From contig OZ242374.1 of assembly GCA_965209055.1 (NCBI GenBank), forward strand, positions 4,352,001-4,416,000: 64,000 nucleotides of DNA, in the 5' to 3' direction. The translations under genes and the position numbers were made by a program. Every line of letters starts with the position of its first letter. Within the stretch, counting starts at the first letter, position 1. Below the pieces are notes generated by a model. The model ran no database searches, was not told the origin of the DNA, and saw only the letters and a program-made list of their open reading frames with translations. The stretch comes from Acidobacteriota bacterium. GTDB lineage: Bacteria; Acidobacteriota; UBA6911; RPQK01; JAJDTT01. Shown piece by piece: positions 1-5,777 of the stretch.

Positions 1-2484
1 GAAGATCGCGTCCCGGTCGGCTCCACCGGCACCGACTCCCGCAACCCCGATCTCGGTGTGGGCAAAACGCAGGAACCCACCGATGGGGCCATTGGCGATA
101 ACTTTCACCGACCCGGTTACCAGATTCCCCCGGCCATGGGTCGAGATCGTAAGCTCCGCCAGCGGGGCCACGTCCGTCTGAACCGTCAGGCCTCCGTCCC
201 GCTGGACCTGAAGCCCCGCGACCATGGCCACCACTGACGGGGGAGCAATGAGACCGCCTTCGCCATCGTAGAAATAGAGGGCAGGGCGGATCGAGTCTGA
301 AGCTACGTTCACGAGCACCAGGTCGGAAGCGATGGCCGCCCCGTTGGCGAAATGGGGGAAGTGCAGCTGCGTGTAATCCTGTGTCCGCGTCGGTGGAACG
401 GGAACCACCGGCAAGGTGGTGAAGACCTGGTTCCGGAAATCCATTTCCAGAGCCACGCCGGCGAATAGGGCATCCTCGGGCGCTCTGCACCGCACCGACC
501 CCACGAAGTTCCCCGTATTAGCCTGGGGGAACAACTCATCAATGAACTGGGCCGTCTGGCCGTTTCCAGCCAGGGGGAGATCCACTTCGCCAAGCACTTG
601 GCCCTTTTGGGTCAGTTGGCAGGTCACGGTCATGGGATCCTCTCCCAGGTTGCGAATCGCGGCTCCGGTATTGATGCCGGATTCGCGGCGGCGCGCGGGA
701 AAGATCGCATCATGTGTAGGAAACCCTGTTCCTACTCCGGCGACTCCGATATCAGGACTGTCGAAACGCAAGACTCCGCCCATCGGGCCGTCGGCCAGGA
801 CCCTCACGGAGCCGGTCACCACCGGCCCTCGTCCGTGGGTCGAGACCGTGAGTTCTCCAAGGGGTTCTATTTCCTTCCTTACGGTCAGGGCTCCGTCGGC
901 CCCGACGAACTGATCTTCGCAGATGTCCACCACGGATGCCGGGGCCATGAGGTCTCCCTCTCTGTCGAAAAAGTAGAGAGCCGGCTGGATGGGAGTGGCC
1001 GCGACATTCACGAACACCAAGTCGGAGCGAATGGCCGCCCCGTTGGCGAAATAGGGAAAGTCCAGGGAAAGCGGCGCCAGAACAGTCAGGGGTAGGAAGG
1101 GCCTGACCAACTCGTAACCGCTATGGTCTACAGGTTTCTCCGGAAACTGTGCAATCTCGACGGTAACTGGCGAGGCCGTTCCGGGCTGTCGAGATACCGA
1201 AAGAATGTTGCTGGTCTCTTGCCCGGTGGGAATCGTGAGGTGGAATGAATTCTCGTGAAACACGCCGCTGGTTACAGTTACTGGAAGATGGATCTCAAAG
1301 GGTGCGCCAGTATGCACTCTCGCCTGGAATCTGTCTGGATCGAACCATTCCAACGAAATGTTGATGGGTAGAGGAACTGCCAGGTTGTCATGAAGGGTGA
1401 GAATTTGCAAAGAGGGGAGGCCAGAGAAGATCTTTTCCGGCAGACTGGTTAGTTGGTTGCCATCTAGGCCGAGGTATTTTAGCGAGGAGAGGCTGGAGAG
1501 GACCCCCGCCGGCAGACTGGTTAATTGGTTGTCTCTAAGCTGGAGGCTTTCGAGCGAGGAGAGGCCGGAGAGGACCCCTTCCGACAGATTGGTTAACTGA
1601 TTGTCTCTTAGCCCGAGGTATTTTAGCGAGGAAAGGCCGGAGAAAACCCCCGCCGGCAGACTGGTTAATTGGTTGTCTCTAAGCTGGAGGCTTTCGAGCG
1701 AGGAGAGGCCGGAGAGGACCCCCGCCGACAGACTGGTCAGCTGGTTCCCACCTATCCGGAGGGACCTTAACGAGGAGAGGCCGGAGAAAACCCCCGCCGA
1801 CAGACTGGTCAGCTGGTTCCCACCTATTCGGAGAAACGTTAACGAGGAAAGGCCGGAGAAAACCCCCGCCGGCAGACTGATCAGTTGGTTCCCAGCTAGC
1901 CCGAGGGACGCTAACGACAGGAGACCGGAAAAGACTCCCGCCGGCAGACTGGTCAATTGGTTGGCATCTAGTCCAAGGTATTCCAACGAGGAGAGGCCGG
2001 AGAAGACCTCCGCCGGCAGACTGGTCAGGTGCGAGTAATCCATGTTGAGGGTTCTTAACGAGGAGAGGCCGGAGAAAACCCCCGCCGGCAGACTGGTCAG
2101 TGGGGTCCTGTCCAAGTAGAGGGTCGTTACTGACGAAAGCCCAGAAAAATCGCCGGCTCTCAACTCTTCCACCTGCGGAGGGGACCGCCGCAGGCGGGTG
2201 GGTTCGATGCCGAGAGGGGGCAAAAAATAAAACCAACCGGAGTGAAAAAACTCGCCCTCAATCGCAGCCAGATGAGCATCGGTCACATCGGCGCAATCGG
2301 TGACTTCTGGCACGAGCTTCACGATCTCGTCGCGCACCTCTGGGGTCCGGTCACAGACGGGGACGATTTGCGCTACGGCCGGCTCTGACGCGGCCAGCAG
2401 GCCCAAGCTCAAGGTGACGGACAGCAGCGATCCTCTGACTCGCCGCCGGCAAAGATGCGGGATCTTCGGAAAGTGGACAGACAT
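1..2484 (-). CDS. Secreted leucine-rich-repeat surface protein, paralog A (runs off the left edge; missing from the ORF track)
   Basis: ATG at 2484; manual translation MSVHFPKIPHLCRRRVRGSLLSVTLSLGLLAASEPAVAQIVPVCDRTPEVRDEI..., 11 LRR units, then the same C-terminal domains as 2894..5545. Position 1 aligns in frame with 3206, so about 312 bp of the gene should lie outside the window. Confidence 0.9.
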   Translation of the reverse strand, partial: MSVHFPKIPHLCRRRVRGSLLSVTLSLGLLAASEPAVAQIVPVCDRTPEVRDEIVKLVPEVTDCADVTDAHLAAIEGEFFHSGWFYFLPPLGIEPTRLRRSPPQVEELRAGDFSGLSSVTTLYLDRTPLTSLPAGVFSGLSSLRTLNMDYSHLTSLPAEVFSGLSSLEYLGLDANQLTSLPAGVFSGLLSLASLGLAGNQLISLPAGVFSGLSSLTFLRIGGNQLTSLSAGVFSGLSSLRSLRIGGNQLTSLSAGVLSGLSSLESLQLRDNQLTSLPAGVFSGLSSLKYLGLRDNQLTNLSEGVLSGLSSLESLQLRDNQLTSLPAGVLSSLSSLKYLGLDGNQLTSLPEKIFSGLPSLQILTLHDNLAVPLPINISLEWFDPDRFQARVHTGAPFEIHLPVTVTSGVFHENSFHLTIPTGQETSNILSVSRQPGTASPVTVEIAQFPEKPVDHSGYELVRPFLPLTVLAPLSLDFPYFANGAAIRSDLVFVNVAATPIQPALYFFDREGDLMAPASVVDICEDQFVGADGALTVRKEIEPLGELTVSTHGRGPVVTGSVRVLADGPMGGVLRFDSPDIGVAGVGTGFPTHDAIFPARRRESGINTGAAIRNLGEDPMTVTCQLTQKGQVLGEVDLPLAGNGQTAQFIDELFPQANTGNFVGSVRCRAPEDALFAGVALEMDFRNQVFTTLPVVPVPPTRTQDYTQLHFPHFANGAAIASDLVLVNVASDSIRPALYFYDGEGGLIAPPSVVAMVAGLQVQRDGGLTVQTDVAPLAELTISTHGRGNLVTGSVKVIANGPIGGFLRFAHTEIGVAGVGAGGADRDAIF
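1381..2163 (-). repeat. 72-bp tandem LRR-coding array of paralog A (1 partial + 10 full 24-aa units)
   Basis: Repeating GAGGAGAGGCCGGAGAA-ACCCCCGCCGGCAGACTGGTCAG motif with 72-bp period; consensus LTSLPAGVFSGLSSLxxLxLxxNQ. Confidence 0.95.
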
Positions 2485-2519
2485 CGGAATGGTTCCTCCG
2501 GGTAGACGGTAGCACCGGC

Positions 2520-2697
2520 AACAATATTCAGGGATGCAGAGGGGCTCCTGCTGGCCGAATTCTAGACCGGACCGCCGACGCGGCGGATGGGAGTCGGACC
2601 TCGTTTTCACCCACGGGAACTGACCGGATAGGCGAAGAAAGGGAGGCGTTTGAAGCGGACACTCAGGCCGTCAGGGCCGTGTCTTAGACTACGATAA
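2520..2697 (-). promoter_or_regulatory. Conserved upstream region of LRR paralog A (blocks 2520-2570 and 2670-2697)
   Basis: The blocks match 5582-5632 (49/51) and 5743-5770 (27/28); the spacer between them is diverged. Confidence 0.6.
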
Positions 2698-2893
2698 GTG
2701 GATCTTATCGGACCCTGATCCCTCTCGGGGGCCTCTGACCAACTTCTCCTAGGCCGAATTTCCAGGCAGGTCGGCGCTGATTCACGCGCCCCGAGAGAAC
2801 CGGACAAACCCTCCTCTTTCCCGCAGGGACTCCGATAATTTCAGTGAACGGACGTTCCCCAGAGCATCGCCGGCGCCCGCTATTCTCAGCAGG

Positions 2894-5545
2894 TCAACGC
2901 CGGACCGGCACCACCGGCAAGGTCGTGAAGATGCGATTGTCGGCGTCCATCTCCAAGGCCAGTCCGGTGAACCTCCCGTCCTCTGGCGCGGTGCAGCGCA
3001 TGGACCCCACGAAGCCGGAGGTGACGGTCTGGGGAAACAACTCGTGGATGAACTGAGCCGTCTGTCCATTGCCGGCCAAGGGGATTTGCTTCTCCCCCAG
3101 ACCCCGGCCGCCTTGCATCAGTTGGCAGGTGATGTCGATGGCGTCCTGTTTCAGGTTATGGAGGGCCATCCCCGTGCGGACTCCTAGTGCCTGGTGTTGA
3201 GCCGGGAAGATCGCGTCCTGGACCGCGCCGCCGGCGCCGACTCCCGCAACCCCGATCTTGGAGTGGGCAAACCGCAGGAATCCCCCGATGGGACCATTGG
3301 CGATGACTTTCACCGATCCCGTCACTAGATCCCCCCGTCCATGGGTCGAGATCGTGAGTTCCGCGAGCGGGACCACGTCCGTCTGAACGGTCAGGGATCC
3401 GTCCCCCTGGACCTCAAGCCCCGCGACCATGTCCACCACTGACGGGGGTGCAATGAGACCGCCTTCGCCATCGTAGAAATAGAGGGCAGGGCGGATCGAG
3501 TCCGAAGCCACGTTCACGAGCACCAGGTCGGAAGTGATGGACGCCCCGTTGGCGAAATGGGGGAAGTGCAGCTGCGTGTAATCCTGTGTCCGCGTCGGTG
3601 GAACGGGAACCACCGGCAAGGTGGTGAAGATCTGGTTCCGGAAATCCATTTCCAGGGCCACGCCGGCGAACAGGGCATCCTCTGGCGCCCTGCAGCGCAC
3701 CGATCCCACGAAGTTCCCCGTATCGGCCTCGGGGAACAACTCATCAATGAACAGGGCCGTCTGGCCATTACCGGCCAGGGGGAGATCCACTTCGCCAAGC
3801 ACCTGGCCCTTTTGGGTCAGTTGACAGCTCACGGTCATGGGATCCTCTCCCAGGTTGCGAATCGCGGCTCCGGTGTTGATTCCGGATTCGCGGCGGCGCG
3901 CGGGGAAGATCGCCTCCTGTGAAGGGAACCCTGTTCCCACTCCGGCAACTCCGATATCCGGACTGTCGAAGCGCAAGACTCCGCCCATCGGCCCATCGGC
4001 CAGGACCCTTACCGAGCCGGTCACCACCGCCCCTCGTCCGTGGGTCGAGACCGTAAGTTCTCCCAGGGGTTCTATTTCCTTCCTTACGGTCAGGGCTCCA
4101 TCGGCCCCGACCAACTGGTCTTCCCCGATGTCCACCACCGATGCCGGAGCCATGAGGTCTCCCTCCCGGTCGAAAAAGTAGAGGGCCGGCTGGATGGGGG
4201 TGGCCGCGACATTCACGAACACCAGGTCGGAAGTGATGGACGCCCCGTTGGCGAAATGGGGGAAGTCCACGGAAAGCGGAGCCAGGACTGTCAGGGGCAG
4301 GGCGTCTTTGACAAGCGCGTATCCGCTATGCCTTGGAGGGGTCTCCGGAAACTGCTCGATTTCGACGGTGACCGGAGCGGTCGTTCCAGGCTGTCGAGCT
4401 ACCGAAACAACGTCACCAGTCTCTCGCCCTGCGGGAATCGTGAGATGGGAGGAATTCTCGTGAAACACGCCGTTGGATACGGTAATCGGAAGACGAATCT
4501 CAAAGGGTGCGCCAGTATGCACTCTGGCCTGGAATCGGCCGGGATCAACCCATTCCAACGAAACGTTGATGGGTAGAGGAACTGCTGGGTTGTCATGAAG
4601 GGTGAGAACTTTCAGCGAGGGGAGGCCAGAGAAGACTCCCGCCGGCAGACTAGTCAATTGGTTGCCACGTAGCCGGAGGAATTCTAACGAGAGAAGGCCG
4701 GAGAAGACTCCCGCCGGCAGGCTGGTCAGTTGGTTGTCACGTAGCCAGAGGGACTTTAGCGAGGGGAGGCCAGAGAAGACCCTCTCCGGCAAGCTGGTCA
4801 GTTGGTTGGCATGTAGCCCGAGGGATTCTAACGAGGGGAGGCCAGAGAAGACCCTCTCCGGCAAGCTGGTCAGTTGGTTGGCACCTAGCCCGAGGAACTC
4901 CAGCGAGGGGAGGCCAGAGAAGACCCTCTCCGGCAAGCTGGTCAGTTGGTTGGCATGTAGCCCGAGGGATTCTAACGAGGGGAGGCCGGAGAAGACTCCC
5001 GCCGGCAGGCTGGTCAGTTGCGAGTATTCCAGATCGAGGGTTCTTAACGAGGAGAGGCCGGAGAAGACCCCCGCCGGAACAGTGATCAGTTGGGAATTAG
5101 ACCATACGAGGAACTCCAGAGAGGAGAGGCCGGAGAAGACTCCCGCCGGAACAGTGGTCAGTGGAGTCCTGTCCAAGTAGAGGGTCGTTACTGACGAAAG
5201 CCCAGAAAAATCGCCGACCGCCAACTCTTCTACCTGTGGAGGGGGTAACCGCTTGCGGGCGGGTTCGACAAGGAGAGGAGGCATAGTGTAACTCCATCCG
5301 CCGTGAAAAAACTCGCCCTCAATCGCAGCCAGATGAGCATCGGTCACATCGGCGCAATCGCTGACTTCTGGTACGAGCTTCACAATCTCGTCGCGCACCT
5401 CCGGGGTCCGGTCGCAGACGGGGACGATCTGCGCGGCGACTGGCTCTGACGCGGCCAGCAGGCCCAAACTCAAGGTGACGATCAGCAGCGAGCCTCTGAA
5501 TCGCTGCCGGCAAAGACGCGGGATCTTCGGGAAGGGGACTGACAT
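2894..5545 (-). CDS. Secreted leucine-rich-repeat surface protein, paralog B (883 aa): signal peptide, 2-Cys N-cap, 9 LRR units, linker, two copies of a ~225-aa C-terminal domain
   Basis: ORF track: hydrophobic N-terminus ending VAA-Q; VCDRTPEVRD...DCADVTDAHLAAI cap; LTSLPxxVFSGLxSL repeats; duplicated FPHFANGASITSDLV...FTTLPVVPV. Confidence 0.92.
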   Translation of the reverse strand: MSVPFPKIPRLCRQRFRGSLLIVTLSLGLLAASEPVAAQIVPVCDRTPEVRDEIVKLVPEVSDCADVTDAHLAAIEGEFFHGGWSYTMPPLLVEPARKRLPPPQVEELAVGDFSGLSSVTTLYLDRTPLTTVPAGVFSGLSSLEFLVWSNSQLITVPAGVFSGLSSLRTLDLEYSQLTSLPAGVFSGLPSLESLGLHANQLTSLPERVFSGLPSLEFLGLGANQLTSLPERVFSGLPSLESLGLHANQLTSLPERVFSGLPSLKSLWLRDNQLTSLPAGVFSGLLSLEFLRLRGNQLTSLPAGVFSGLPSLKVLTLHDNPAVPLPINVSLEWVDPGRFQARVHTGAPFEIRLPITVSNGVFHENSSHLTIPAGRETGDVVSVARQPGTTAPVTVEIEQFPETPPRHSGYALVKDALPLTVLAPLSVDFPHFANGASITSDLVFVNVAATPIQPALYFFDREGDLMAPASVVDIGEDQLVGADGALTVRKEIEPLGELTVSTHGRGAVVTGSVRVLADGPMGGVLRFDSPDIGVAGVGTGFPSQEAIFPARRRESGINTGAAIRNLGEDPMTVSCQLTQKGQVLGEVDLPLAGNGQTALFIDELFPEADTGNFVGSVRCRAPEDALFAGVALEMDFRNQIFTTLPVVPVPPTRTQDYTQLHFPHFANGASITSDLVLVNVASDSIRPALYFYDGEGGLIAPPSVVDMVAGLEVQGDGSLTVQTDVVPLAELTISTHGRGDLVTGSVKVIANGPIGGFLRFAHSKIGVAGVGAGGAVQDAIFPAQHQALGVRTGMALHNLKQDAIDITCQLMQGGRGLGEKQIPLAGNGQTAQFIHELFPQTVTSGFVGSMRCTAPEDGRFTGLALEMDADNRIFTTLPVVPVRR
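4586..5224 (-). repeat. 72-bp tandem LRR-coding array of paralog B (1 partial + 8 full units)
   Basis: 72-bp periodic repeats; near-identical units LESLGLHANQLTSLPERVFSGLPS recur at a 144-bp offset. Confidence 0.95.
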
Positions 5546-5581
5546 CTGAATGGGTCCTCACAGGTGGACGATAGCGGCGCT

Positions 5582-5777
5582 AACAATATTCAGGGATGCA
5601 GAGGGGCTCGTGCTGGCCGAAGTCTAGACCGGGCCACCGACCTCGACGGTGTGGACGCTGGCCTCGTTTTTGACCCAAATGGACTCATCGGGTCGGAGAA
5701 GAAGGGGAGGGTTCAGAGCGGCTCGGAGCGGAAAATCAGAAGGTCAGGGCCGCGTCTTAGACTACGATAAAGTCTAA
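5582..5777 (-). promoter_or_regulatory. Conserved upstream region of LRR paralog B, ending in the palindrome TTAGACT-N7-AGTCTAA (5757-5777)
   Basis: Homologous to 2520-2697; inverted repeat read directly. Confidence 0.55.

Follow-up and report, generated by a model that had tools for sequence, protein, structure and literature searches.

The internalins InlA and InlB of Listeria consist of a cap, leucine-rich repeats (LRRs), an immunoglobulin (Ig)-like inter-repeat domain and C-terminal modules which anchor the protein to the wall. The variable lymphocyte receptors (VLRs) of lampreys are closed by cysteine-rich caps, LRRNT and LRRCT. LRR proteins are reported to be abundant and expressed in sponge symbionts (PMC4850255), in a literature which handles them as a bulk category. 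Here two neighboring LRR genes, A and B, are described from an Acidobacteriota bacterium (GCA_965209055.1, contig OZ242374.1). The genome is a single contig of 6,077,182 bp with a G+C content of 62.8%. The window analyzed is the stretch of 64,000 nucleotides from genome position 4352001 to 4416000, and genes A and B lie at its start. Each protein is predicted to be built from a signal peptide, a two-cysteine cap with an aromatic hairpin, an LRR solenoid head, an Ig-like spacer and a double C-terminal module, called the foot below. Genes A and B are probably germline-evolving tandem paralogs of an expanded, exported, internalin-like family of binding proteins in a sponge-associated bacterium of the Acidobacteriota, with a foot which would fasten or target the protein to a glycan. 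A literature search found no paper on this head-spacer-foot architecture, including in metagenome-assembled genomes (MAGs) of Acidobacteriota from sponges.

The first-pass annotation of the window had described A and B as tandem paralogs whose offset grows from 3061 to 3205 nt. This was confirmed by the open reading frames (ORFs) and by BLASTP, which aligned the proteins at 79% identity with a single gap of 48 residues. The start codons are at window positions 5545 (B) and 2484 (A), 3061 nt apart. The stop codons begin at window position 2894 (B) and at genome position 4351689, which corresponds to window position -311 (A), and are 3205 nt apart. The net length difference is 144 bp. The annotation had gone further and called the genes collinear except for two extra 72-bp units in A, and this did not survive comparison of the units themselves. 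Units were cut as 24-residue blocks from residue 118 on, and a matrix of nucleotide differences was made among all 20 (11 from A and 9 from B). Only three pairs were orthologous: A01/B01 (6 of 72 nt differ), A02/B03 (9/72) and A11/B09 (9/72). Most inner units were nearest to a unit of their own gene, with 6 differences between A05 and A06, 4 between A07 and A09, and 6 between B04 and B05. B04 and B06 were identical. B02 was without a near relative, its nearest unit being 21 differences off. With three orthologous pairs and such similarity within each gene, the 144 bp is a balance of units gained and lost several times since the gene duplication. Duplications of 72 or 144 bp have rebuilt the inner units inside each gene, and the predicted binding faces of A and B differ mostly because whole inner units have been replaced in this way. 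Exact direct repeats inside an array reached 77 nt in A and 86 nt in B, in both cases with an offset of 144 nt, and exact matches from one array to the other did not exceed 30 nt.

Variation within the unit was concentrated at a few positions. Entropy was calculated per position over the 16 inner units, as had been proposed earlier. The five positions of highest entropy were exactly 3, 4, 6, 8 and 9 (1.85-2.56 bits). The remaining positions were mostly at or below 0.7 bits, with positions 7, 18 and 24 reaching 1.2-1.4 bits. The chance of exactly these five positions leading is 1 in 42,504. In an AlphaFold2 (AF2) model of B the strand falls at positions 4-6. Variation was therefore not spread evenly over the 24-residue unit, and the earlier description of a fixed scaffold with a variable concave face stood. 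All of the xxLxLxx strings listed for A and B in the first-pass annotation were also correct when the translations were cut into 24-residue units. In 69 family members with 6 to 26 units each (960 units) the same positions 3, 4, 6, 8 and 9 again had the highest within-array entropy, and the convex side was also fairly variable (1.2-1.7 bits). Variability of the concave face is the pattern expected of any LRR protein of the 24-residue class. Between the orthologous units A01/B01, A02/B03 and A11/B09 the concave changes were none or conservative (N/D, M/L, D/E, Q/K and I/V). The recent duplicates A07/A09 and B04/B06 share identical concave residues, and none of the four differences between A07 and A09 is concave.

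The ratio of nonsynonymous to synonymous substitution rates (dN/dS) was obtained from Nei-Gojobori counts at three levels: within arrays, in a paralog pair and in related genomes. For the arrays of A and B, all pairings of the 16 inner units gave a dN/dS of 1.19 at concave positions (A 1.09, B 1.37) and of 0.26 in the scaffold. These pairwise counts are non-independent and near saturation and are given without a p-value. The scaffold dS of 0.42-0.52 indicates that the units are old and that purifying selection, and not recent copying, keeps the scaffold constant. Two further paralogs (genome 77 kb and 4,515 kb) are collinear. They are 1215 aa each and 91% identical without gaps. Their dN/dS was 1.24 at concave positions, 0.37 at other LRR positions and 0.25 in the rest of the protein. 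In this pair the concave rate did not exceed the synonymous rate (28/261 vs 132/988 sites, p 0.30). Amino acid differences were more frequent at concave sites (20/110) than at other LRR sites (30/418; p 0.0014). In related genomes, four pairs of orthologs and the tandem paralogs of one genome (G004) were compared. Concave dN/dS was 0.69, 0.45, 0.69 and 0.73 in four of these five comparisons, and other LRR codons gave 0.17-0.29. One ortholog pair had no change in 50 concave codons. The indels between relatives were of 24, 96, 24 and 25 residues. By these codon counts the concave face evolves at close to the neutral rate. Relaxed constraint fits this, perhaps with episodes of positive selection.

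The arrays were recognized by LRR_8 (PF13855) with 300.9 bits for B and 205.3 bits for A, against a cut-off of 27. Tandem Repeats Finder reported periods of 72, 144 and 216 at window positions 1412-2101 and 4606-5162. The AF2 model of B residues 40-429 had a predicted local distance difference test (pLDDT) score of 93.4 and a predicted template modeling (pTM) score of 0.89. The modeled strand recurs every 24 residues, and an all-beta Ig-like domain stands behind the array. The N-terminal 39 residues of B are probably a Sec signal peptide, as read from their composition. This segment is conserved in relatives. The first-pass annotation had listed the signal peptide, the two-cysteine cap, the first and last LRR and the C-terminal domains as conserved, and the A/B alignment agreed (82%, 98%, 92%, 79% and 93%/88% identity, respectively). 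The cap (aa 40-80) had a dN/dS of 0.07. The aromatic loop region (aa 81-117) was 68% identical with a dN/dS of 0.66, and the loop noted earlier as variable reads HSGWFYFL in A and HGGWSYTM in B, as stated. In the model the cap forms helices followed by short strands, and the loop has the lowest pLDDT (74-83). The Ig-like spacer was 74% identical (dS 0.53, dN/dS 0.31). A 114-aa piece covering most of it matched no Pfam family at E <= 10. The dN/dS of the C-terminal modules was 0.13 for copy 1 and 0.30 for copy 2. Along the C-terminal half (window 2897-4546 in B compared with window 1-1341 in A) dS swings from 0.05 (B aa 634-683, including an identical 10-residue linker) to 0.52-0.56 (aa 384-433 and 734-783). 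This unevenness suggests patches of gene conversion.

The foot module is about 225 residues long, and the two copies in B are 62% identical to each other. Its AF2 model (pLDDT 82.9) contains two beta-sandwiches. Residues 121-231 of the foot matched Thermotoga TM1070 (1nc7_A) with a Z score of 12.2 and a root-mean-square deviation (rmsd) of 2.6 over 105 of 116 residues. They also matched ASRT (2ii7_A), the Anabaena sensory rhodopsin transducer, at Z 9.5, with the next entry at Z 6.7. By fold alone, the modeled second half of the foot is TM1070/ASRT-like (ASRAH). Against PDB sequences only chance-level matches were found (E 0.53 with the single sequence; titin at E 0.05 with a profile). The name DUF5719/ASRT was given by the Atlas to neighboring clusters alone, with scores of 0.94-0.95, and is a lead. 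Among foot columns Cys155 is nearly invariant and Cys199 invariant, and an Arg, a His, a Glu, an Asp and a Gln are conserved. The cysteine pair and the conserved polar columns fit an extracellular ligand-binding domain. The ASRAH superfamily has been argued to bind sugars, and versions at the cell surface, outside the cell, have been described (PMC2739507). This study, De Souza, Iyer and Aravind 2009, was the only relevant paper found on ASRAH/DUF5719.

In an exhaustive search 1,591 representative proteins matched the foot at E <= 0.001 and 337 at E <= 1e-30. Most of these relatives are long multidomain proteins which close with the module, often in two copies. A hidden Markov model (HMM) run over all reading frames of the genome found 36 module copies in 23 frames. 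In 21 of these frames no more than 12 residues separated the last copy from the end of the frame, and in the other two it was internal, with 141 and 306 residues following. The parts in front of the foot were very varied and included LRR, FN3, protease-like and other regions, labeled by reading or from precomputed Pfam assignments. The foot is probably a shared anchoring or targeting module. Three adjacent genes at genome positions 4915608-4921609 each join the module to a similar N-terminal domain.

The genome encodes six paralogs with an LRR head and a foot, so that A and B are not alone, as the first-pass annotation had expected. Among 8,000 candidates scored, 2,999 database relatives were found at E <= 0.001. 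Matches at E <= 1e-30 occurred in 8 of 8 genomes of the same genus, 5 of 6 of a second genus in the family and 6 of 16 further genomes in the order; most cross-genome matches cover the C-terminal modules only, and the tallies are therefore as much a record of the foot as of the LRR-plus-foot family. The named close relatives are Acidobacteriota MAGs. Compared with B, the seven closest relatives were 53-57% identical in the LRR head and roughly 65-90% identical in the flanking domains. Tandem LRR-foot pairs recur in four related genomes (G004-G007). None of five proteins flanking A and B was found in five related loci of 19-20 kb, and those tandem pairs therefore lie elsewhere. The pair layout is conserved at three of the related loci (L035, L036 and L038 of G007, G006 and G005, respectively). 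Between G007 and G005 one member of the pair is 96% identical, and its neighbor is 77% identical with five LRR units different. The paralog closest to A and B (64-72% identical; genome 1715969-1723661) is interrupted in its second C-terminal module by about 4.7 kb of inserted DNA, in which lie a 332-aa ORF which looks like a zinc-finger insertion sequence (IS) transposase and a 558-aa ORF of unassigned kind.

Sponge metagenome runs contain parts of the locus DNA. A metagenome search listed 16 runs from 9 studies, none of them RNA. At least half of the sampled words were present in four of the runs. These four derive from a single sample, possibly that from which the genome was obtained. The first-pass annotation had named an enrichment of LRR eukaryotic-like proteins in animal symbionts, and their abundance is known for sponge symbionts (PMC4850255).

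A mechanism can be proposed from these observations. The solenoid of 9 or 11 'typical' LRRs would act as the binding head. The foot, the common end of about 21 proteins predicted to be exported, would most likely fasten or target them to a glycan of the envelope or matrix. Heads diverge by duplication and loss of units, often in steps of 144 bp, through recombination or slippage between the exact repeats of 77-86 nt. They also diverge by near-neutral replacements at the five exposed concave positions, with the scaffold under purifying selection. The ligand would most likely be a host or matrix molecule.

Three other explanations were weighed against this one. It is very improbable that the tandem pair and its repeats form a high-frequency recombination system for programmed variation, whether antigenic or phase variation, VLR-like copying or retro-mutagenesis. 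The exact repeats at the 144-nt offset could support frequent gain and loss of units, and the swing in A/B dS suggests gene-conversion patches, but the arrays share at most a 30-nt exact match and their synonymous divergence of 0.4-0.5 makes the units old. None of the 20 units had a full-length nucleotide match outside A and B in the genome (three short matches of 20-35 nt were found), and there was no second copy of the array, which ruled out VLR-like cassette copying. All four genome matches to reverse transcriptase (RT; PF00078) were more than 640 kb away, the nearest at about 642 kb. This distance, with the lack of a second array copy, ruled out a target of a diversity-generating retroelement. 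Upstream of A and B no inverted repeats and no simple-sequence tract were found, and the only direct repeat was a 15-nt pair of 87% identity. An invertible promoter or simple-sequence switch in front of the genes was rejected on this basis. The antibody- or VLR-like architecture proposed in the first-pass annotation was not supported, given the same findings and a concave dN/dS not significantly above 1, and the analogy adds nothing beyond a typical LRR protein. True diversifying selection, in an arms race or by niche partitioning over host receptors, phage or competitors with each paralog binding its own ligand, is unlikely. The concave dN/dS of the arrays and of the paralog pair was 3-5 times that of other sites, conservation was lowest in the LRR head in almost every relative compared, the cap hairpin varies too, and the family has six paralogs here and tandem pairs in four related genomes. 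The concave rate was, however, never significantly above 1, fell to 0.45-0.73 in related genomes and was accompanied by an ortholog pair with no concave change. The orthologous A/B units differ at most conservatively there and the recent duplicates do not differ at all. Of the diversifying binder family claimed earlier, the expanded family stood. Diversifying selection is unproven, and relaxed constraint with turnover of units accounts for the data. A related proposal is a germline repertoire of LRR receptors on a common glycan-binding foot, in which unit shuffling and selection on the concave face yield host or phage specificities in sponge symbionts and tandem pairs represent the birth stage. 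This was considered improbable.

The foot might also be something other than an anchor, either a secretion or sorting domain or a self-association domain which builds a surface layer or matrix, and this was thought rather unlikely. In 21 of 23 frames it comes last, after unrelated front parts, as C-terminal sorting domains do, it occurs in one or two copies, and its terminal strand FTTLPVVPV is conserved. At 225 residues and often doubled it is, however, much larger than known C-terminal sorting domains. It is also internal in two frames, and the conserved Arg, His, Glu, Asp and Gln columns of the ASRAH-like half give this half the look of a ligand-binding sandwich. Several results weigh against A and B being germline-evolving binding proteins on a glycan-binding foot. 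The foot matched no Pfam family at E <= 10, including ASRT (PF07100) and DUF5719, and neither phmmer nor an alignment profile of the foot retrieved an ASRT or TM1070 chain from the PDB sequences. Its first half gave generic structural matches only (Z 5-6), and Foldseek gave a template modeling (TM) score of at most 0.25 with an rmsd of 13-20. The signal peptide was assigned by eye, and export and anchoring depend on reading of sequence and models. The concave dN/dS here is 1.2-1.4, or 1.7-2.0 with the scaffold dS as yardstick, and this leaves room for positive selection missed by crude pairwise counts. The contigs over the locus from four of the listed runs (Logan) were short. Their longest array pieces were 543-667 nt and none spans an array. 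Joints between these contigs were considered as array variants and rejected. Their sides were 21-39 nt (one of 149 nt), mostly with the sequence between given as not known, and they are taken to be breaks induced by the repeats. A germline-evolving family of exported, internalin-like binding proteins remains the probable explanation. The coordinates of its features are given in Table 1.

Table 1. Features of genes A and B and of related paralogs, with positions in the window or the genome as marked
Feature	Position	Strand	Description	Basis
Gene B	window 2894-5545	minus	883 aa, complete, P0001	ORF and translation; Pfam LRR_8, E 1.1e-91
Gene A	window 1-2484	minus	931 aa; window covers aa 1-828 (P0002)	ORF and translation
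Gene A, 3' end	genome 4351689-4352000	minus	last 103 codons and stop, 311 nt beyond window start	
Leader of A	window 2485-2600	minus	GGAGGA ribosome-binding site 8-13 nt before ATG and conserved block of about 100 nt	
Leader of B	window 5546-5660	minus	same conserved block as leader of A	alignment of 5 upstream regions
Conserved leaders of the other three paralogs	genome 71150-71250, 77600-77702, 4515939-4516040			alignment
B predicted signal peptide	window 5429-5545	minus	aa 1-39; Arg-rich start, 14-residue hydrophobic stretch, VAAQ site	read by eye
B N-terminal cap and aromatic hairpin	window 5195-5428	minus	aa 40-117; two Cys (VCDR...DC); HGGWSYTM	
B LRR array	window 4547-5194	minus	aa 118-333; 9 units of 72 nt	
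A LRR array	window 1342-2133	minus	aa 118-381; 11 units of 72 nt	
B Ig-like beta-sandwich spacer	window 4277-4546	minus	aa 334-423	AF2 model all-beta, residues 285-382
A Ig-like spacer	window 1072-1341	minus	aa 382-471	aligned to B spacer
B C-terminal module, copy 1	window 3602-4276	minus	aa 424-648; generic beta-sandwich and ASRAH-like beta-sandwich	
B C-terminal module, copy 2	window 2897-3571	minus	aa 659-883; ends ...FTTLPVVPVRR at protein end	HMM, 373 bits
A C-terminal module, copy 1	window 397-1071	minus	aa 472-696	HMM, 386 bits
A C-terminal module, copy 2, first 122 residues	window 1-366	minus	aa 707-828; remainder beyond window	

About 100 nt upstream of the start codon are conserved in five LRR-foot paralogs and contain the GGAGGA site, a TTGAATA(C/T)TGT block and a TTCGGCCAG block. 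This region may be a promoter or leader of the family. The regions upstream of A and B are alike over roughly 200 nt, which indicates that each copy brought its own leader. No sigma-70-like sites were found upstream of A and B, a result which carries little weight in this phylum. The neighbors of A and B are presumably housekeeping genes and were labeled by eye from their translations as ilvH-, glnD-, MBL (metallo-beta-lactamase)-hydrolase-, uppP-, guaA- and dnaE-like. The long frames which cross the arrays on the plus strand (window 1601-2038 and 4602-5180, with EERPEKTPAGRLV repeats) are mirror images of the repeats and not genes. Three of the RT matches (genome 784615-785313, 3708872-3709570 and 5306520-5307218) have identical scores and lie in 506-aa frames, and are thus probably copies of one retroelement, which as a guess could be a group II intron. 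The fourth RT match, at genome position 1095807, is different.

The locus is a clean and complete example of an LRR display architecture with a head, a spacer and a double foot. LRR 'eukaryotic-like' proteins are a recurrent signature of sponge symbionts, and the heads at this locus change chiefly through the gain and loss of whole units. The LRR head family itself is of a known type and the foot is the less ordinary part. The foot belongs to no curated family. It is more original than the head and makes the better target for study. Its ligand would place a whole class of Acidobacteriota exoproteins.

Comparison with known systems placed the LRR head among proteins with typical repeats. The best structural matches were animal ectodomains (LRRTM2, the Nogo receptor 1ozn, LGR4 and Toll), which share the 24-residue unit LxxLxLxxNxLxxLPxxxFxxL. 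Engineered LRRTM2 (5a5c) matched at E 9.7e-15 with 50% identity and an rmsd of 1.4 over 216 columns, and the Nogo receptor had an rmsd of 1.0-1.1 over 196 columns. The identity to 5a5c is high because both sequences are near the consensus and not through descent. Unlike the animal ectodomains, A and B are without the four-cysteine caps LRRNT and LRRCT and have a two-cysteine cap, with the Ig-like domain in place of the C-terminal cap. Lamprey VLRs and the VLR-derived repebody (3rfs, rank 37 among fold matches) resemble A and B in having a constant scaffold and a variable concave sheet. A and B, however, have no cassette library, somatic assembly or stalk, and their fold is no closer to VLRs than to dozens of LRR proteins. 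The caps differ as well: that at the N-terminus of A and B has two cysteines, and the array is followed not by a C-terminal cap but by the Ig-like domain.

Among bacterial proteins, the Leptospira LRR proteins LIC11098 (4u08) and LIC10831 (4u06) ranked 7 and 15 as fold matches. Like A and B they are of an exported kind with near-consensus arrays, and they are expanded in host-associated species, but they are without a comparable C-terminal foot. The NCBIfam model NF047464 (LIC_11051 family) matched at E 3.4e-28 with 98.5 bits, far under its cut-off of 1000 bits. Type III LRR effectors (XopAC, XopL, SlrP and SspH2; NCBIfam) were rejected as relatives. They reached 39-80 bits against cut-offs of 450-1243, and LRR units only were matched. 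The second half of the foot shares the fold of the ASRAH superfamily without a match at the sequence level. In contrast to the ASRAH domain, that of the foot is always preceded by another sandwich, and the two form a unit of 225 residues. The Listeria internalins have, like A and B, a capped LRR head, an Ig-like domain fused behind it, repeated C-terminal modules and a family of many paralogs. The units of A and B differ in being 'typical' repeats of 24 residues and not 22, their foot has no relation to GW modules or LPXTG, and the bacterium has an envelope of Gram-negative type. For the way in which A and B would work, the internalins are the best analogy. The architecture is internalin-like by analogy and not by homology, with a putative attachment through the foot.

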